Origin: an uncultured Phycisphaeraceae bacterium
GTDB lineage: Bacteria > Planctomycetota > Phycisphaerae > Phycisphaerales > UBA1924
Direction of reading: 5' to 3'
Length of the DNA stretch: 64,000 nucleotides
Assembly (NCBI GenBank): GCA_964391865.1
Contig: CAYMNQ010000003.1
Coordinates: 1-64,000, forward strand
This document shows, in pieces, positions 2,199 to 50,372 of the stretch. The position numbers were made by a program, and so were the translations under genes. Each line of letters opens with the position of its first letter. The stretch's first letter is position 1. Under the pieces are notes generated by a model. The model did no database searches. It was not told the DNA's origin and saw nothing but the letters and a program-made list of their open reading frames with translations.

Positions 2199-3395
2199 AT
2201 GCCCGCGAATGCTGTTGTTGCTCAGTCCGGCGGACCCACCGCCGTCATCAATCAGTCGCTCGTCGGCGTGGTCGAGGGGCTGCGCGGGAACCCGAAAATC
2301 GGGAAGATCCTCGGCGGGCGGCACGGCGTGCGCGGCATCACGGGCGAGCAGTTTGTTGATCTGACGAACGTGCCGCAGGCGCAGCTTGACTTGGTGGCGA
2401 AGACGCCCTCGGCGGCGCTGGGCTCATCGCGCGACAAGCCGGACAAGGCGTACTGCGAGCGCGTGCTCGCGGCGCTGAAGAAGAACGACATCCGCTACTA
2501 CTTTTACATCGGCGGGAATGACAGCTCTGATACGTGCCGCATTGTGGCGGAGATGGCGCGCGACACGGGCTACGAGCTGCACGCGTTCCACTGCCCGAAG
2601 ACGGTTGACAATGACTTGATGATGAACGATCACACGCCGGGGTACGCGTCGGCGGCGCGGTACGTGGCGATGGCGTTCATGGGTGATCAGCTTGATAACC
2701 GCTCGCTGCCCGGGATCAAGATCAACGTGGTGATGGGGCGGCACGCGGGGTTTCTCACCGGCGCGGCAGCGCTGCTGCGCGAGCGCGAGGACGACGGGCC
2801 GCACTTGGTGTATCTGCCCGAGGTGCCGTTCAACAATGAATCGTTCGTGGCGGATGTCGAGCGGGTGTACTCGAAGCTGGGGCGCTGCCAGATCGCGGTG
2901 AGCGAGGGGATCCAGAATTCGCAGGGCGAATCGATCGGCGCGACGCTGATCTCGGGCGAGAAGGATGCGCATGGCAACGTGCAGCTCTCGGGCAGCGGCG
3001 CGCTGGGCGATGCGCTGGCGGAGTTCATCAAGAAGAAGTTGACTCCTGAGGGGGGAAAGCCGCCGCGGGTGCGCGCGGACACACTGGGCTACCCGCAGCG
3101 GTGCTGGCCCGACGCGAGCCCGGTGGACCAGGCGGAAGCGCGGGCGAGCGCGCGGTTCGCGGCGGAGACGGCGCTGAAAGGGGAGCACGCGAGCGGGTCG
3201 ATCGCGATCCAGCGCGCGAATACTGCTGGTGCGCCGTATCAGGCGAAGTATGTGCGCGTGGAGTTGAAGGAAGTGGCGGCGAAGACGCGGCACATGCCGG
3301 AGGAGTTCATCAAGGGGATGAGCGATGTGTCGCCGGCGTTTGTGGAGTGGCTGAAGCCGCTGGTGGGGGTGATGCCGGGGATTGGGAGGTTGTAG
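2199..3395 (+). CDS. pfp: pyrophosphate-dependent 6-phosphofructokinase (PPi-PFK)
   Basis: PFK family motifs GGPTAVINQS, GGNDS, PKTVDNDL. Asp in GGNDS and Lys in PKTVDND sit at the positions that distinguish PPi- from ATP-PFKs. AAGGAG lies 8 nt upstream of ATG 2199; the track ORF begins at GTG 2190. Confidence 0.8.
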   Translation: MPANAVVAQSGGPTAVINQSLVGVVEGLRGNPKIGKILGGRHGVRGITGEQFVDLTNVPQAQLDLVAKTPSAALGSSRDKPDKAYCERVLAALKKNDIRYYFYIGGNDSSDTCRIVAEMARDTGYELHAFHCPKTVDNDLMMNDHTPGYASAARYVAMAFMGDQLDNRSLPGIKINVVMGRHAGFLTGAAALLREREDDGPHLVYLPEVPFNNESFVADVERVYSKLGRCQIAVSEGIQNSQGESIGATLISGEKDAHGNVQLSGSGALGDALAEFIKKKLTPEGGKPPRVRADTLGYPQRCWPDASPVDQAEARASARFAAETALKGEHASGSIAIQRANTAGAPYQAKYVRVELKEVAAKTRHMPEEFIKGMSDVSPAFVEWLKPLVGVMPGIGRL

Positions 3396-3506
3396 GAGTT
3401 GGGCTTGGGGCTTGGGGGTTTCGTAGTGAGCACGAGCGGCGCGAATCCGAGCTCGATCGGCGATCTGCTGTTTCCTCCTCCACAGTCGGGCAGACACTGC
3501 CGCGCG

Positions 3507-4595: not shown

Positions 4596-4708
4596 TTCCG
4601 AGGAGAAGTAGGTTGGGGAGCACTGGTTTCAGAGCCAACCAGTGGCACCCGGACCCCGAACCCCGGACACCGGACGGTGCGGCATGAACACCAACCCCGC
4701 GCGCGACA

Positions 4709-11197: not shown

Positions 11198-11563
11198 GTG
11201 ATTGTGCTGGTGTTGTACGCCGTGCCGGTGTGGGCGCTGATCTACCTGCTGCGCCGGCGGGTGGTGGGGCTGGTTGTGTTGGGGGTGGCGACGGCGTTGG
11301 TGCCGCTGCTGATCCATGTGGAGTCGGCGGCGATCGGGCCCTGGGCGGGGATGCTGCGGATCATCGGGGCGTCGTACGCGGGGCTGATCGCGGTCGTGGG
11401 TGTGCTGCTGTGGTTGCAGCGCCGTGCGGCGCGGGGTCACGAGTGCCGGCACTGTTTGTACGACCTGACGGGGAATGTCACGGGCGTGTGCCCGGAGTGC
11501 GGGCACGTGACGCCTGATGTGACGGCGGGGGAGGTGCGCCGGGCGAAGAAGGGGAAGGCGTAA
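11198..11563 (+). CDS. small membrane protein with C-terminal zinc ribbon (short member of the C-x2-C...CPECG family)
   Basis: Two TM helices then RRAARGHECRHCLYDLTGNVTGVCPECGHV. This matches the tail motif of the three larger paralogs (48806..49525, 49527..50219, 58172..58936). GTG start; GGAG upstream. Confidence 0.5.
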   Translation: MIVLVLYAVPVWALIYLLRRRVVGLVVLGVATALVPLLIHVESAAIGPWAGMLRIIGASYAGLIAVVGVLLWLQRRAARGHECRHCLYDLTGNVTGVCPECGHVTPDVTAGEVRRAKKGKA

Positions 11564-11600
11564 GTCGGAAGGGCGGAAGGCGGAGGTCGGAAGGGGGAAG
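11553..11600. repeat. purine-rich GGAAGG-type repeat, also present at window positions 1-30
   Basis: gtcggaagggcggaaggcggaggtcggaagggggaag directly after the 11198..11563 stop. Compare ggaaggtcggaaggcggaag at 1-20. Confidence 0.3.
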
Positions 11601-11655
11601 TGGCGGGTTTCGGGGGGTCGGGGGTCGGGTTTGGCGCACCGCGCATTCGCGCATC

Positions 11656-14749: not shown

Positions 14750-15784
14750 ATGAACGTTCTCGTCACCGGCGGCGCCGGGTACATCGGGTCTCACGCGAGC
14801 CAGCGGCTGCTGCGCGATGGTCACTCGGTCAGCGTGATCGACAACCTGTTCCGCGGGCACGAGCGCGCGATCGACCTGCTGCGCACGATGCCGGGGGTGA
14901 CGGCGGAGCGCCTCGCGTTCTTCAAGGGCGATGTGGGCGACCGGGCGCTGGTCGAGCGCGTGCTCCGCGAGCGGAAGATCGAGGCGGTGATGCACTTCGC
15001 CGCCATGGCGTACGTGGGCGAGAGCGTGAACGACCCGCTGGCGTACTTCCGCAACAACACGACGGCGACGTTGAACCTGATCGAGGCGGTCGAAGCCGCG
15101 GGCGTGAAGCGGATGGTGTTCAGTTCGACGTGCGCCAGCTACGGCGAGCCGCCGCCGGAGATGATCCCGATCGCGGAGACGTGCCCGCAGAAGCCGATCA
15201 ACCCGTACGGCGCGTCGAAGCTCTTCTGCGAGCGGATGCTGTTTGATTACGCGGCGATGAAGAAGATCAAGGGAGAGGACTTCGCGTTCGCGGCGCCGCG
15301 GTACTTCAATGTCGCCGGGTGCGATCGTTCCGGGCTTCTGGGCGAGGACCACGAGCCGGAGACGCACCTGATCCCCGTGATTCTGCAGGCGGTGCTGGGC
15401 AAGCGCGACGCGATCACGATCTTCGGCACCGACTACCCGACGCCCGACGGCACGTGCATCCGCGACTATGTGCATGTTGAGGATCTGGTAGATGCGCACG
15501 TGCACGTGATGAACGCGCTGAAGCCGGGGGACACAAGGACGTACAACCTGGGCATCGGGCGCGGCTACTCGGTGCGCGAGGTGATCGACTCGGTGAAGCG
15601 CGTGACGGGGCGGAACTTCACGGTGAAGGAGGGCGCTCGGCGGGCGGGCGACCCGCCGACGCTGTTCGCGGATGCGTCGAAGATCAAGAGGGAACTGGGG
15701 TGGGAGGCGAAGATCCGCTCGATTGATGAGATCGTGGCGACGGCGTGGAAGTGGTTTGAGAAGAACCCGGGGGGGTACAGATAG
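14750..15784 (+). CDS. galE: UDP-glucose 4-epimerase
   Basis: MNVLVTGGAGYIGSH Rossmann start; YxxxK context (YGASKLFCE); GalE-length SDR. AAGGAG lies 8 nt upstream. Confidence 0.85.
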   Translation: MNVLVTGGAGYIGSHASQRLLRDGHSVSVIDNLFRGHERAIDLLRTMPGVTAERLAFFKGDVGDRALVERVLRERKIEAVMHFAAMAYVGESVNDPLAYFRNNTTATLNLIEAVEAAGVKRMVFSSTCASYGEPPPEMIPIAETCPQKPINPYGASKLFCERMLFDYAAMKKIKGEDFAFAAPRYFNVAGCDRSGLLGEDHEPETHLIPVILQAVLGKRDAITIFGTDYPTPDGTCIRDYVHVEDLVDAHVHVMNALKPGDTRTYNLGIGRGYSVREVIDSVKRVTGRNFTVKEGARRAGDPPTLFADASKIKRELGWEAKIRSIDEIVATAWKWFEKNPGGYR

Positions 15785-15816
15785 TTTTGAGTTGAGAGTT
15801 TTGAGCTTGGAGCCGG
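15785..15816. repeat. left arm of imperfect inverted repeat flanking the four-helix-bundle gene
   Basis: TTTTGAGTTGAGAGTTTTGAGCTTGGAGCCGG. Its reverse complement begins CCGGCTCCAAGCTCAAAA and pairs with the right arm at 16238..16271. Confidence 0.5.
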
Positions 15817-15841
15817 AATTAATGGGCGGCGGGGGAGTGTC

Positions 15842-16219
15842 GTGCAGGACTATCAGAAACTCGTGGTGTGGCAGCGGGCTCACGCGCTGGCGCTTTCGAT
15901 CTACGAATTGACGCGCGAGTACCCGCCCGACGAGCGATTTGGGCTCACCTCGCAGACGCGACGCTGTGCGGTGTCGATCGCGTCAAACATCGCCGAGGGG
16001 AGCGGGAGGGCGACCGATCGCGACTTCGCGCAGTTCCTTCATATCGCGGTTGGATCGACGAACGAACTGGAGTACCAGTTGCTGCTCGCGCGTGATCTTG
16101 GGTTTATCAGCGCCTCGCACGGAGACGTGATCGCCGCTGAAACAGTCGAAGTTCGGCGGATGCTGATCGCATTGATCGGGACCGTTCGCAGGGCCAATAC
16201 GCGACAGACGGCGTCGTAG
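15842..16219 (+). CDS. four-helix-bundle protein (TIGR02436 / 23S-rRNA-IVS-type protein)
   Basis: MQDYQKLVVWQRAHALALSIYELTREYP...SQTRRCAVSIASNIAEGSGR is the hallmark sequence of this family. Lower GC than its neighbours. GGGGGAG RBS before GTG 15842. Confidence 0.8.
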   Translation: MQDYQKLVVWQRAHALALSIYELTREYPPDERFGLTSQTRRCAVSIASNIAEGSGRATDRDFAQFLHIAVGSTNELEYQLLLARDLGFISASHGDVIAAETVEVRRMLIALIGTVRRANTRQTAS

Positions 16220-16237
16220 TTGGGGCGTTGAATCTGT

Positions 16238-16271
16238 CCGGCTCCAAACTTCAAACTCAAAGCTCTCAACC
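16238..16271. repeat. right arm of the inverted repeat flanking the four-helix-bundle gene
   Basis: CCGGCTCCAAACTTCAAACTCAAAGCTCTCAACC. Its first 10 nt are exactly complementary to the left arm; the remainder is imperfect and built of CTCAAA-type units. Confidence 0.5.
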
Positions 16272-16278
16272 GCGCCGA

Positions 16279-16971
16279 TCAGAACGGAAAGATGACTCCC
16301 GCCCACACACCGATGCCATCCCGCGCCGGGTTGTCGTCGGTGCCGAAGCTGCTGGCGTTGGAGATGTGGTGCCAGCCGATGCCCAGGTCGAGGCGTGCGC
16401 CGGAGTCGCCGAGCGCCCACGTCACGCCGATGCCGGCGCGTGGCGTGAAGTCGAAGGTGGTGCCGCCGTCGGGGACGTCGTCGCTGGTGAAGAGGAGGCC
16501 GATGCCGAGGTCGGCGTAGACGGTGTACTGGCGCGTCTCGGGTTCGATGAGGAAGTGCCAGCGGAAGCCGAGGTGCGGGTTGAAGCCGCCCGCGTTTTCG
16601 CCGTCCTGGTCGAAGTACCAGCCGCGGAAGCCGAAGCGGAACTCGAAGCCATCGGTAAGGAAGTAGTCGAAGTTGACGGAGCCGGCGTAGTCGTTGGCGT
16701 CGTCGGAGAAGACGGCGCCGGCGTCGAAGCCCCACCACCAGGTGTGGCGCTCGGCGAAGACCTTGCGCGCGGCGGCTTCGGCGATGGGCTGGTCGTTCGG
16801 AGAAGCGTCGGTGGGCGTGCTGGCGCCGCCGCCGGTCGCGGGCGGGTCGCTGAGTGTCGGCGCGCTCGAGTTGAACGAGAGCGCGTCGAGCGCCTCGGCG
16901 TGGGCAGCGCCCGGCGCGAGAAGTGCAGCGAGGACGATGAGCAACGGGCGTGGATCAGCGGATGGGCGCAT
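16279..16971 (-). CDS. outer-membrane beta-barrel, PagL-like lipid A deacylase / acyloxyacyl hydrolase family
   Basis: Signal peptide MRPSADPRPLLIVLAALLAPGAAHA. Small barrel ending ...GVIFPF. HHISNASSFG resembles the His-x-Ser-Asn catalytic strand of PagL-type enzymes. Confidence 0.5.
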   Translation of the reverse strand: MRPSADPRPLLIVLAALLAPGAAHAEALDALSFNSSAPTLSDPPATGGGASTPTDASPNDQPIAEAAARKVFAERHTWWWGFDAGAVFSDDANDYAGSVNFDYFLTDGFEFRFGFRGWYFDQDGENAGGFNPHLGFRWHFLIEPETRQYTVYADLGIGLLFTSDDVPDGGTTFDFTPRAGIGVTWALGDSGARLDLGIGWHHISNASSFGTDDNPARDGIGVWAGVIFPF

Positions 16972-17313: not shown

Positions 17314-17449
17314 GCGTGCGCGTGTGAGGAGCGGTCGGGTTGCCTCGCGATCGCACCGGGCGCGTCTCAGAGCAGACGCGGCTGGTGGCACCCGATGTCC
17401 GGTCCCCGATCTCCGATCCCCGACACCCGAGCGCGTTGCGTGTCGCGCG

Positions 17450-47612: not shown

Positions 47613-48836
47613 TCAGGCGACGGTTTCCTCGCCGCCGTCATCGCCCTCCGCCCCCACCCCGGCTCCCGCCGTCTCGCGCGGGAACCAGCGCAGACCGCCC
47701 GCTTCGAACTCATCCAGCGCCGCGCGCACCCCCGCCGCGTCCGGCGCGGTGCGCACCCGCTCGCGCAGCGGCTTGCACGGCCCCAGCTTCTTCGCGAACC
47801 ACGCGATCCGCCGCCGGATGTGATTCATCGCGTACCGCTCGTCGCGGTATTCGAGCATCAGGGCGAAGTACCGGCGGATGATCGCGAGTTTTTCCGCGAG
47901 CGGGGGGTCGGCGGGGGAAAGTCCAAAGTCCAAAGTCACAAAGTCCAAATGCTGGCGTGACCCGGTCTGGCTCGGGCTCAACTGTCTTTCAATTGCACTT
48001 TGCTCATTTGCACTTTGGACTTTCTGAACCTCCCACCCCTGCCGGAAGATCCACGGCGCCGCCAGCGCCCCGCGCCCGATCATCACGCCGTCGCAGCCGG
48101 TGCGCTCCATCATGTCGATCACGCCGAGGGCGGTGGTCACGTCGCCGTTGCCGAGCACGGGGATCGCGCCGTCAACCGATTCGACCACGCGACGGATGCC
48201 CTCGTGGTTCACGCCGCCCGTAAACTTCTGCTCCGTCGTGCGCCCATGCACCGTGACGAGTTGAATCCCGGCGCCCGCGAGATCGCGCGCCAGCCGGGGG
48301 GCGACGAACCGCTCGTTATCCCAGCCGAGGCGCATCTTCGCGGTGACGGGCACGCGCCCGGCGCTGGCGCGCTCCGCCGCGCGGACCACCATCTCCGCGA
48401 GGTGCACCGTGGCGCACGGGTCGCACAGCAGCATCGACCCGCCGTTCTTCTTCGTCACTTTGTCGACGGGGCAGCCCATGTTGATGTCGATCACCGTCGC
48501 GCCGTGATCGACGGCCCAGCGCGCCCCCTCCGCCAGAATCTCCCCCTCCGCCCCGTACAGCTGCATGCACAAGGGCTTGTCCAGCTCGTTCGTCGCCGCC
48601 AGATCAAGCGAGTGCATCGACCCGCGCAAGAGCCCGTGCGGCGAGAGCAAATCCGTACACGCGAGGCCAAGCCCGCCCTGCTCGCGGCACACAATCCGGA
48701 ACGCCAAATCGCAATACCCCGCGATCGGCGCGAGCAACAGATTGCTCCGCAGCGTCACCGCCCCGATCGTCAGCGGCACGCCGACACGCGGATTCGCGCG
48801 AGCGCTTAAGCGGGTTGGCTGGGAGGTGTCGTGCAT
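47613..48836 (-). CDS. dus: tRNA-dihydrouridine synthase carrying an in-frame ~36-codon insertion
   Basis: Dus motifs LAPIAGYCDLAFR, DINMGCP, GRGALAAPWIF. Between PWIFRQ and the conserved C-terminal helix lies QGWEVQKVQSANEQSAIERQLSPSQTGSRQHLDFVTLDFGLS, encoded by the low-GC palindromic element at 47917..48024. Confidence 0.75.
   Translation of the reverse strand: MHDTSQPTRLSARANPRVGVPLTIGAVTLRSNLLLAPIAGYCDLAFRIVCREQGGLGLACTDLLSPHGLLRGSMHSLDLAATNELDKPLCMQLYGAEGEILAEGARWAVDHGATVIDINMGCPVDKVTKKNGGSMLLCDPCATVHLAEMVVRAAERASAGRVPVTAKMRLGWDNERFVAPRLARDLAGAGIQLVTVHGRTTEQKFTGGVNHEGIRRVVESVDGAIPVLGNGDVTTALGVIDMMERTGCDGVMIGRGALAAPWIFRQGWEVQKVQSANEQSAIERQLSPSQTGSRQHLDFVTLDFGLSPADPPLAEKLAIIRRYFALMLEYRDERYAMNHIRRRIAWFAKKLGPCKPLRERVRTAPDAAGVRAALDEFEAGGLRWFPRETAGAGVGAEGDDGGEETVA
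47917..48024. repeat. MITE-like low-GC inverted-repeat element inserted in-frame within dus
   Basis: GAAAGTCCAAAGTCCAAAGTCACAAAGTCCAAATG ... CATTGCACTTTGCTCATTTGCACTTTGGACTTTC. The outer 13 bp are perfectly complementary. About 108 bp, a multiple of 3. GC far below its surroundings. Confidence 0.5.
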
Positions 48837-49525
48837 GAAGAGGAGGGAATGGTAGCCCCGCCGCATTCCGGGCAGCGGGCGGCGCTGAGGCCGTGAAGGT
48901 CGTAGCCGCACGCGGGGCAAAGTCCGCGCTGGCGGCGGCGCAGCCGGCGAGTCGTCGGAACAACAGTGATCGCCGCGAGCCACAGCGCGGCATAGAACAG
49001 GGCATCAATCAACATCGCGGGACAGAGTGCCGACGTCGGTAGAAGAATCAGCGAGTGGTGAGGATTCGCCGATCGCTTGGTCCAGTTCGGAACGCGCAGC
49101 CCTTCACGTACTCGCGTGGCGCTATACGGCTCGTCGGGGTAGTCAGCCGTTACGGCCGAACCACGAAGGCACTTGAACGGCCAACCTGCGCGGTTCACAT
49201 GAATGAAGTGAGTGATCGTCGGGAGATTGTCACGCCACCCAGCCGTCCACCGGGGCGCGACATCGATCCTGCGCTCAAAGTAGTACGCCGGGTGTGTCAT
49301 GGCGCGATAGGGATGGAGCCCCAACGACGAGTAGCCGGTCCACTCCTGAAGTTGCCCGTGCCAATACTGTTGTTCCGGGCTTCGAAACTGCGCGCCATCG
49401 GGCGGACGCGTGGCGAACGGTCCGAATCGAAGCTGAGCGGACATCGAGATTCCCCATGCCACCGCCACCGTCGTCAACACGCCGAGCGCGAGACACACCA
49501 CCACTCGCCACACCCAGCGCCGCAT
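48806..49525 (-). CDS. membrane protein with periplasmic domain and cytoplasmic C-terminal zinc ribbon (family member P2)
   Basis: N-term MRRWVWRVVVCLALGVLTTVAVAWG (TM1). Periplasmic segment contains GWPFKC. TM2 is followed by RRLRRRQRGLCPACGYDLHGLSAARCPECGG. Start chosen by homology to the adjacent paralog. Confidence 0.55.
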   Translation of the reverse strand: MRRWVWRVVVCLALGVLTTVAVAWGISMSAQLRFGPFATRPPDGAQFRSPEQQYWHGQLQEWTGYSSLGLHPYRAMTHPAYYFERRIDVAPRWTAGWRDNLPTITHFIHVNRAGWPFKCLRGSAVTADYPDEPYSATRVREGLRVPNWTKRSANPHHSLILLPTSALCPAMLIDALFYAALWLAAITVVPTTRRLRRRQRGLCPACGYDLHGLSAARCPECGGATIPSSSCTTPPSQPA

Positions 49526-49526
49526 C

Positions 49527-50219
49527 TCAAGGCTCCGTGACAACGACCGCCGACTTAGGCTGCGCCCATGATGCAATGACCGAATCACCACACTCAGGGC
49601 AACGAGAAGAGTGGAGGCCGACCAGACAATACCCGCACCCGCCGCATTGGTTTCGCTGCTGCCTCCGCCATCGAATCAGGATGCGCGGGAATGGGATGAG
49701 TCCAGCCAAGAGAATTGCATAGAAGATCGAGCTGAGGGCCAGCCCGCGCACGATCGGTGAGTGTGGCAGTGGGAATCGAGCCGGAGTGGTGTTGGTGGCC
49801 GTTGGCGGTGTGTAACCAGTGAAGAGAACAGTGCTGCTCAAGTCGATGCGGCTCTTTCGTTCGCTCGATTGGACACATCTGAATGGCCATCCATAGGCCG
49901 TGAGTGTCAGATCAAAGTCCTCGGCGGTAAGAGCGCCTTCGGCGGTGCTCACAGCCCAATCCGCAAGTGCAACTTCGGGCCCGATGGCGACGCAGAGGCA
50001 ACTGCTCGGTGTTCTCAGCCGGTAACGATCACTGATCCAATCTCTCTCGCGAACACCGTCGATGCTGGGCTCTCGGTCGATCAGAATGACGCGGTTCACA
50101 CGCAGCGATGGCCCGACCGGTGCTGCGCCGCGCATCAGTATTGATACCCACGGCAGCGCGACCGTTGTCAGCACGCCGAGTGCCAAGCACACCGGGATTC
50201 TCTTCACCCATCGCCGCAC
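49527..50219 (-). CDS. membrane protein with periplasmic domain and C-terminal zinc ribbon (family member P3, tandem with P2)
   Basis: MRRWVKRIPVCLALGVLTTVALPW; GWPFRC; RWRRQQRNQCGGCGYCLVGLHSSRCPECGDS. Its stop lies 1 nt from the P2 start. Confidence 0.55.
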   Translation of the reverse strand: MRRWVKRIPVCLALGVLTTVALPWVSILMRGAAPVGPSLRVNRVILIDREPSIDGVRERDWISDRYRLRTPSSCLCVAIGPEVALADWAVSTAEGALTAEDFDLTLTAYGWPFRCVQSSERKSRIDLSSTVLFTGYTPPTATNTTPARFPLPHSPIVRGLALSSIFYAILLAGLIPFPRILIRWRRQQRNQCGGCGYCLVGLHSSRCPECGDSVIASWAQPKSAVVVTEP

Positions 50220-50250
50220 GCGCGACCTCCCGCGCCGAACGTCGCAGTCT

Positions 50251-50372
50251 TCCGGCTCCCAGCCTCAAGCTCCAAGCTTCAAGCTTCCGGTCTCCGGCCC
50301 CCAACTCAAAACCCCCAACCCAAAACCCGCAGCACTCAGCACTCGTTCCTCAGCACTCAGCTCCCCCGCTCC
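50251..50372. repeat. low-complexity direct-repeat tract upstream of P3
   Basis: cctcaagctccaagcttcaagcttcc; ccaactcaaaacccccaacccaaaaccc; gcagcactcagcactcgttcctcagcactcagc. Resembles the CTCAAA/CTCCAA units of the IRs at 15785 and 16238. Confidence 0.4.

Follow-up and report, generated by a model that had tools for sequence, protein, structure and literature searches.

Nucleotides 15783-16271 of a 64,000-nucleotide stretch of DNA from an uncultured Phycisphaeraceae bacterium (contig CAYMNQ010000003.1; the whole stretch is hereafter called the window) probably represent one copy of a widespread and previously unnamed cassette, in which a gene of the PF05635 family lies between inverted arrays of about five heptamers each. 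The cassette has the architecture of the intervening sequences (IVSs) of rRNA in the context of an mRNA, and we propose that its transcript would be processed and its arrays bound by the encoded protein. The best description of the element is an IVS-type four-helix-bundle (4HB) cassette with inverted heptamer arms, located outside rRNA. Mobility is established for the family, through homologs in Nostocales.

Such an element touches on three puzzles that have been separate for decades: the role of the open reading frame (ORF) in rRNA IVSs, the function of the large 4HB family, a relative of the Avd proteins of diversity-generating retroelements (DGRs), and the origin and binder of the heptamer arrays of cyanobacteria, Xanthomonas, Beggiatoaceae and Bacteroidetes. 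A gene set in inverted five-heptamer arrays joins the rRNA IVSs, the PF05635 family and these orphan repeats in one testable unit. It would define a mobile element without a known recombinase, whose movement is visible in sequenced plasmids as insertion into 2-13-nt spacers inside operons. For annotation, it provides a simple recognition rule for 4HB cassettes and their gene-less derivatives.

The cassette downstream of galE

The gene in the cassette occupies 15842..16219 on the + strand and encodes a protein of 125 aa. The original prediction regarded it as a 4HB gene of the IVS type between galE and a PagL-like gene, and profile searches agree: the protein matches PF05635, '23S_rRNA_IVP', with 129.5 bits (cut-off 33.8; E 7e-38; positions 1-105 of the 106 in the profile) and TIGR02436, 'four helix bundle protein', with 125 bits (cut-off 24). 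It belongs to the '23S rRNA intervening sequence protein' family and is a homolog of XCC0516 from Xanthomonas campestris, its nearest solved relative (PDB 2GSC; E 4.9e-21 over residues 3-118). PDB 2RLD is matched as well, and both entries contain five chains. According to the paper on the Coxiella IVS, XCC0516 is a homopentamer of four-helix bundles. A PADLOC search of the protein gave no defence-system match.

The left arm (15783..15817, + strand) consists of five tandem heptamers, AGTTTTG, AGTTGAG, AGTTTTG, AGCTTGG and AGCCGGA, and its first AG is formed by the last two bases of the TAG stop codon of galE. The right arm (16237..16271, + strand) is its inverted-repeat partner and consists of five inverted heptamers, which read GGTTGAG, AGCTTTG, AGTTTGA, AGTTTGG and AGCCGGA in reverse complement; 8 nt separate its end from the stop codon of the convergent PagL-like gene. 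Both arms and the 4HB gene together make up 489 bp. Between the left arm and the gene is a spacer (15818..15841, + strand) with a Shine-Dalgarno-like GGAG (15834-15837), 4 nt 5' of the start codon, and a second spacer (16220..16236, + strand) separates the stop codon from the right arm. Both arm sequences quoted in the original prediction are present where it had placed them, although their nature as heptamer arrays had been overlooked. In comparisons of each arm with itself, lag 7 gives the best identity (19/29 for the left arm, where lags 4-10 were compared, and 16/28 for the right arm), and the left-arm value is reached by only 0.13% of the 35-nt windows in the 64 kb. The two arrays, which are degenerate, fall short of a strict 80% criterion for tandem arrays. 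The lower GC content that had been noted is also confirmed: 59.3% for the cassette and 46-49% for the arms, compared with 66.9% for the whole window.

An inverted-repeat search recovers the arms as 15784-15817 and 16237-16270, 34 nt long, 76% complementary and 419 nt apart. Their perfectly complementary stretch of 10-12 nt (TTGGAGCCGGA / TCCGGCTCCAA) is located at the ORF-proximal ends, and not in the outer 10 nt as originally supposed. The long imperfect stem enclosing the ORF is otherwise upheld. The duplex of the isolated arms has a free energy of -40.8 kcal/mol, compared with -16.3 +/- 3.4 for shuffled arms (z -7.1; 0/1000), and mutual pairing of the arms is predicted in the minimum-free-energy as well as the centroid fold of 15780-16275. 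It could be argued that this inverted repeat is a chance product of low-complexity sequence or a bidirectional terminator, given that the arms are AT-richer and simple in sequence and that the genes on either side are convergent. This explanation is already contradicted by the results and we give it almost no weight: besides the comparison with shuffles, only 0.1% of random 34-mer pairs lying 300-600 nt apart in the window pair as well as the arms, no terminator-like site was found at the locus, 419 nt lie within the stem, an ortholog conserves the arms far better than the spacers, and dozens of unrelated loci show the same layout (see below).

The ortholog in question (L004) encodes a 92% identical 4HB protein and carries the cassette at the equivalent position between galE and PagL. 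Synonymous divergence (dS) between the two loci is about 0.28, with dN/dS of 0.17 for the 4HB gene, 0.06 for galE and 0.18 for the PagL-like gene. The arms are identical at 64/68 positions (94%), compared with 28/48 (58%) for three short spacers. In more local comparisons, the left arm is identical at 32/33 positions and the right arm at 32/35, while the 5' spacer keeps only 13/24, among them its G-rich Shine-Dalgarno part, and the 3' spacer 11/17. The start codon is GTG in the window and ATG in the ortholog. Since dN/dS is 0.17 and the arms are far above the spacers in identity, both the gene and its arms are maintained under purifying selection. The window copy is an old insertion, common to a relative at this distance, and may no longer be mobile.

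Only 24 nt, including the GGAG, lie between the left arm and the start codon, which leaves no space for a promoter. Transcription should therefore come either from galE read-through or from a weak sigma-70-like match (TTGAGA-18-GATAGT; 15756..15785, + strand) inside the 3' end of galE, just 5' of the left arm; the latter is suggested by its consensus match alone (1 match, compared with 0.2 expected in shuffles). In either case both arms should be on one RNA.

The gene order at the locus is Band_7 - epimerase - 4HB - PagL - SlyX - ABC transporter, on a contig found in three public assemblies. The gene of the GalE-type epimerase is directly 5' of the 4HB gene, with its TAG at 15782-15784, and the convergent PagL-family gene follows on the 3' side, with its stop codon at 16279-16281. 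No reverse transcriptase and no transposase is present among these called neighbours. The 4HB protein shares its fold family with Avd and weakly matches two profiles of this type (NF033474, DivGenRetAVD, 21.4 bits; PF22296, bAvd-like, 20.8 bits), so that it might be taken for the accessory protein of a DGR, possibly a degenerate one. Both scores are far below the respective cut-offs of 80 and 40 bits, and the repeats around the gene are heptamer arrays rather than a pair of template and variable repeats. The DGR interpretation, extremely improbable in our opinion, was rejected on account of the scores and of the neighbours, which include no reverse transcriptase.

Heptamer arms across the PF05635 family

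The layout of gene plus arms is found family-wide and with a fixed polarity. The survey included 80 loci from species-representative genomes, encoding relatives of 38-56% identity, and the flank statistics were computed on 85 family genes; among the phyla represented are Acidobacteriota, Planctomycetota, Bacteroidota, Chloroflexota, Pseudomonadota, Cyanobacteria and Saccharibacteria. The original prediction assumed that the family is normally encoded inside 23S rRNA. This is not borne out by Rfam, which gave no match to large-subunit rRNA in any of the 80 related loci (L005-L084), and neither such a match nor any known RNA family within the 64-kb window. The prediction also rested on the presence of the flanks in related genomes, and they are there: the arms are nearly unchanged in the ortholog and inverted flanks occur throughout the family.

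When the 130 nt upstream of each 4HB gene were paired with the 130 nt downstream and compared with shuffles, z was below -3 in 46% of the 85 genes, and the mean duplex energy was -68.6 kcal/mol for matched flanks versus -50.8 for mismatched ones. Local alignment attributes the pairing to arms composed of tandem repeats, mostly with units of about 7 nt and in a few arms of 8 or 9 nt. Some arms are perfect, such as those with GGCAATG units in L020 (32/32) and AGTTCAC units in L012 (31/31); GAGTATT, TCAGCTA, TAGTGGT and CAGTTTA are further units in the family. Tandem arrays in these loci are mainly of period 7 (134, versus 6, 59, 27 and 6 for periods 5, 6, 8 and 9), and of the strict period-7 arrays, 129 in all, 68 are located no more than 150 nt from the end of a 4HB gene, in a zone making up 5.8% of the sequence (p ~1e-48). 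The flanks have their highest mean autocorrelation at lag 7 (0.40/0.38; 0.26 in controls) and lag 14 (0.37 upstream); control DNA has a lag-3 coding signal only.

After rotation to a common register, 94 units yield the consensus AGYnnnY, with A at position 1 in 84 and G at position 2 in 85; position 3 is mostly T, and position 7 a pyrimidine in 79. The information content is 4.07 bits, whereas shuffled units reach 2.89 +/- 0.17. The arms deviate from the unit consensus 112 times, and in 67 cases the deviation recurs at the mirrored position of the other arm; arm mismatches rise from 104 in register to about 178 after a slide by one unit. Because the deviations are mirrored and sliding adds mismatches, the arms are position-specific mirror images and not just two arrays of one unit. 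The polarity is seen on the coding strand, where 36 loci have more G than C in the upstream arm and 7 have a C-rich one (p 9e-6).

Co-direction of the 4HB gene with its upstream neighbour is observed in 64/77 cases, with a median of 66 nt from the neighbour's stop codon to the 4HB start. Four loci (L008, L046, L070 and L079) contain two PF05635 genes each within 2-3 kb, and in the three of them with clear arrays (L046, L070 and L079) the two genes carry different heptamer units. Gene-less arrays in the surveyed loci are nearer to the cassette unit of their own locus than to the units of other loci (mean distance 2.03 versus 2.96, p 5e-7). As for other features near the cassettes, tRNA genes are found about 100-300 nt away in L011 (2807-2892) and L019 (3512-3759), and a group II intron domain about 2 kb away in L066 (3637-3736).

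Movement of homologs and proposed function

Matches of the window protein in a tblastn search of plasmids are mostly from heterocystous cyanobacteria, the classic home of STRR heptamers. In plasmid C of Trichormus variabilis ATCC 29413, a 4HB gene bracketed by five-unit TCAGAAT-type arrays lies inside a trb operon. The cassette, about 428 bp, is absent from the same spot in seven plasmids whose flanking sequence is 97.3-97.7% identical, namely those of Nostoc PCC 7120 (beta plasmid), Tolypothrix PCC 7601 and PCC 7712, N. linckia, N. carneum, Aulosira laxa and Microchaete diplosiphon. The empty site, for which the junction was analyzed at the base level in pCC7120beta, is AAAAAGTAATTAACAAATAATTATG, an array-free spacer of 13 nt between two ORFs. 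In the filled site GTAAT flanks the insert on both sides, consistent with a 5-bp target duplication. At 82% nucleotide identity, the cassette is present in other contexts in N. punctiforme pNPUN02 and A. laxa plasmid2, and both loci have relatives with an uninterrupted spacer of 2-3 nt at the cassette site. Similarity among cassettes in different contexts starts and stops exactly at the arrays. Moreover, three further Nostoc plasmids harbor, in three different contexts, gene-less elements about 170 nt long (L218 301-470, L219 301-470 and L220 301-477). Their arms share 92-96% identity with those of the T. variabilis cassette, and in place of the gene they enclose a conserved non-coding insert of about 100 nt with a strong structure. 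These elements may correspond to known small dispersed Nostoc repeats. The filled and empty sites, the array-bounded similarity and the gene-less elements with such arms together indicate that arms and content move as a unit, the arms being the common module. Homologous cassettes thus insert, arms plus gene together, into array-free intergenic sites.

Two further observations concern these plasmids. In plasmid alpha of Nostoc PCC 7120 (L091 1995-2400), a 4HB gene has a downstream array only, with CTCTGCC units, and upstream of it the near end of a transposase gene is located about 550 nt from the 4HB start; given this transposase gene, the upstream arm may have been lost by rearrangement. In case 3 of the filled/empty comparisons (L097 805-830 compared with L095 1915-1940), the spacer at the empty site contains a short AACTGAA-type duplication whose copy number differs between the filled and the empty plasmid, which hints at heptamer slippage blurring the insertion junctions.

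The mobility of the IVS-like module, as originally suggested, therefore stands for homologous cassettes and not for the window copy, as no empty galE/PagL site turned up for the latter. PagL-like orthologs with 62-69% identity (L086-L090) have broken synteny: SlyX is kept on one side of the gene, and the other side has neither galE nor a 4HB gene.

These data could also be explained if the arms act at the DNA level only, as terminal inverted repeats (TIRs) of a non-autonomous element resembling a miniature inverted-repeat transposable element (MITE) and moved in trans by an enzyme of the host or of another element, with the 4HB gene as cargo or as an arm-binding accessory and the RNA stem without a role. 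The filled/empty polymorphism with its GTAAT duplication in the cleanest case, the gene-less elements with nearly identical arms in different plasmids, the mirror-image arms and the lack of a G:U bias or compensatory change (see below) would all be expected of such an element. We nevertheless consider it rather unlikely. The G-rich arm is upstream in 36/43 loci and the AG is conserved on one strand, neither of which is predicted by symmetric TIR recognition. Since arm sequences differ between cassettes, even in one locus, a single transposase could not recognize all of them. True IVS members are demonstrably processed as RNA, and in the lineage of the window the arms have been conserved long after insertion.

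Our preferred interpretation of the window cassette as an IVS-like unit in an mRNA involves the following steps. The cassette would be transcribed with galE or just after it. The arms would then pair in the transcript, forming a stem of about 35 bp that could be cut by a double-strand-specific RNase such as RNase III, as in rRNA IVSs, and this cleavage would release the 4HB mRNA from that of galE. By analogy with the rRNA elements, cleavage of the stem by RNase III is moderately likely. The 4HB protein, presumably a pentamer, may in turn recognize arrays of five heptamers, those of its own cassette as well as the solo or gene-less ones elsewhere in the genome. Such binding is suggested by the match of five units to five protomers, by the AG conserved at 7-nt spacing, and by the precedent of RNA binding by the Avd pentamer.

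There are several observations that weigh against this proposal. First, the cassette encodes no nuclease, recombinase or transposase. Second, the fold of the whole 496-nt region is not unusually stable in comparison with shuffles (z -1.65). Third, the arms of the window copy and of its ortholog differ by three to four changes, none of them compensatory, the arms of the Nostocales cassettes differ, by eye, by unit and not by compensated pairs, and on the sense strand G:U does not exceed A:C among arm mismatches across the family (41 versus 49). With no G:U excess and no compensatory changes, selection for an RNA helix is not demonstrated, and constraint on the unit sequence could explain the conservation. 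Fourth, apart from the missing empty site, no target duplication is visible at the ends of the window cassette, and among the three filled/empty comparisons the duplication is clear in one and not in the two older ones. Finally, co-orientation of 4HB genes with their neighbours (83% and 74%) exceeds only slightly the value of about 70% that is usual for gene pairs in bacteria.

Heptamer arrays are also present elsewhere in the window. Just seven places in the 64 kb contain 35-nt windows that reach the lag-7 value of the left arm, and all are at or beside gene ends. At one of the seven, three consecutive solo G-rich arrays (50247..50351, - strand, which is the sense strand of both neighbours; 3 matches versus 0.13 expected) are of the GCTGAGT, GTTTTGG/GTTGGGG and AGCTTGA types and lie between a Polyketide_cyc2-domain gene and a co-directional gene for a 230-aa protein. 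They have neither an inverted partner arm nor a 4HB gene, and two of the three end in GCCGGA, as do the cassette arms. At another of the seven, a gene-less inverted pair of AAAGTCC-type arrays (47917-47951 and 47990-48024, + strand) has arms of 35 nt, as long as those of the cassette, that are 80% complementary and enclose a 38-nt loop, itself folding into a small hairpin. A scan of metagenomes with the arm consensus TTTGAGYTKGGRGCCGGA, a pattern too short for the size of the collection, gave 120 matches that are apparently due to chance, with no heptamer arrays in their flanks and none of the 120 within 300 nt of any 4HB gene.

Such solo arrays, which lie with cassette units upstream of other genes in the window and also occur in other loci, raise the possibility that the two arms are independent arrays of the STRR/TAACTGA/GGGAATC type, serving as regulator sites on mRNA or DNA for neighbouring genes, and that their complementarity is a by-product of using the unit in inverted orientation. 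The conserved AG core and the lack of compensatory evolution would agree with this, as would the arrays just upstream of start codons in the TAACTGA survey (MacGregor 2015). Independent arrays, however, should not mirror each other's consensus deviations position by position, nor arrive together with a gene at a previously array-free site, nor delimit exactly the similarity between cassettes in different contexts. We therefore regard this explanation as improbable.

Theoretically, the IVS-like interpretation might be extended much further. The PF05635 pentamers might be the missing partner of bacterial heptamer repeats, each protomer reading one AGYnnnY unit in an array of five. Together with their arrays they might form a class of selfish mobile elements without a recognisable transposase, which seeded the 23S IVSs, the STRR, TAACTGA and GGGAATC arrays and the gene-less hairpins that lie between operon genes across Cyanobacteria, Xanthomonas, Planctomycetota, Bacteroidota and other phyla. 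Such elements could move, by analogy with Avd, via an RNA intermediate with the help of a host reverse transcriptase, although a DNA cut is equally compatible with the 5-bp duplication. This extension is speculative, and we would regard it as possible rather than probable.

Several additional heptamer arrays and ORFs in the window deserve mention. A G-rich array of GCTTGGG units (3383-3421) is directly 3' of a stop codon, and a C-rich array of CCCGGAC units (4639-4682) is found about 1.2 kb further on, immediately 5' of the next start codon. Between the two lies a 389-aa ORF without a Pfam match. With the G-rich array upstream and the C-rich one downstream, the polarity is that of the 4HB cassette; the two arrays are not complementary to each other. 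A GGTCGGA/AGGCGGA-type array (11555-11608) is 3' of the stop codon of a 121-aa ORF. A TCCCCGA-type array (17389-17440), the reverse complement of which contains GGGGATC, similar to the G-rich repeats of Xanthomonas and Nostoc, is located between slyX and an ABC permease gene. Beside the solo arrays there are tandem paralogous ORFs of 261 and 230 aa (48806-49591 and 49527-50219, both - strand), whose products have an N-terminal hydrophobic segment and a C-terminal zinc-ribbon-like motif, CPxCGY...RCPECG; the protein from 49527-50219 has no Pfam match.

Comparison with known systems

The Avd protein of DGRs is a homologous pentameric barrel of four-helix bundles. In a cryo-EM structure, its pentamer grips an RNA stem-loop with all five protomers, and flipped-out bases are placed in the crevices between them. 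It therefore sets a precedent for a pentamer that reads a five-fold repeated nucleic-acid target. The window locus differs from DGRs in having no reverse transcriptase among the neighbours and no template or variable repeats.

With MITEs and with REP/BIME elements the cassette has in common its small size, intergenic location, inverted-repeat ends and many copies, as well as the existence of gene-less versions with the ends of a gene-bearing version. In contrast to them, it is not associated with a transposase or RAYT-type gene, its ends are tandem heptamer arrays that vary between cassettes, and the orientation of the G-rich arm is fixed relative to the 4HB gene. As to a cognate transposase, the window cassette encodes only the 125-aa 4HB protein and none is found among the called neighbours; an enzyme acting in trans from elsewhere in the genome is possible.

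The closest anatomical parallel, already drawn in the original prediction, is with gene-bearing 23S IVSs such as those of Coxiella and Leptospira, and it holds well: both kinds of element are about 430-490 nt long and carry a PF05635 ORF in the loop of a long stem, which is formed by terminal inverted repeats of some 28-35 bp. The IVS of Coxiella burnetii is 428-444 nt long (489 nt here), and its 28-bp terminal stem is cut by RNase III. It also contains, just before the S23p ORF, 3-4 tandem GACAGAT heptamers, the copy number of which depends on the strain, so that tandem heptamers are directly upstream of the ORF in both elements. The GC content is below that of the host in both. However, 23S IVSs replace the terminal loop of helix 9, 25 or 45 of 23S rRNA, whereas the cassette here follows the stop codon of a protein gene, and because it lacks this defining location it should not be filed as a 23S IVS. 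Excision by RNase III is demonstrated for the rRNA elements and would be expected here by analogy. The ORF is under purifying selection here, whereas that of Coxiella is, in the view of the authors who described it, decaying and probably not expressed.

The arms also qualify as heptamer arrays in their own right, with five head-to-tail 7-nt units each in an intergenic location. The STRR heptamers of cyanobacteria are said to go back to work by Mazel in 1990. Rehm 2015 lists 186 GGGAATC arrays in X. campestris, most of four units and with 70 convergent pairs, and GGGGAYT repeats in Nostoc; for Xanthomonas 70-75 such pairs are given, typically with 4 units per arm and loops of tens of nt, and in the rows consulted the loops are 21-67 nt long and the pairs are located between operon genes. 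Row 15 of its list is a four-unit GGGAATC array 6 nt after bccP that overlaps the annotated start of XCC0516, that is, of the gene for the very protein solved as 2GSC. TAACTGA repeats are reported from Beggiatoaceae, Cyanobacteria and Bacteroidetes (MacGregor 2015). The reverse complement of TAACTGA becomes, after rotation, AGTTATC, a unit that also flanks the 4HB genes in loci L007 and L011. The searched text of these two papers does not mention the 4HB/IVS protein family, and a search of the open-access literature found no general link of PF05635 genes with heptamer arrays, the one mention being a local one for the Coxiella IVS. All these repeats share with the cassette arms the 7-nt period, short intergenic arrays of 2-6 or more units, the proximity to stop and start codons, and an occurrence either solo or as convergent inverted pairs. 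The difference is one of context: in Rehm 2015 and MacGregor 2015 the repeats are regarded as free-standing and their partners as unknown, whereas here they are the arms of a gene cassette of fixed polarity.

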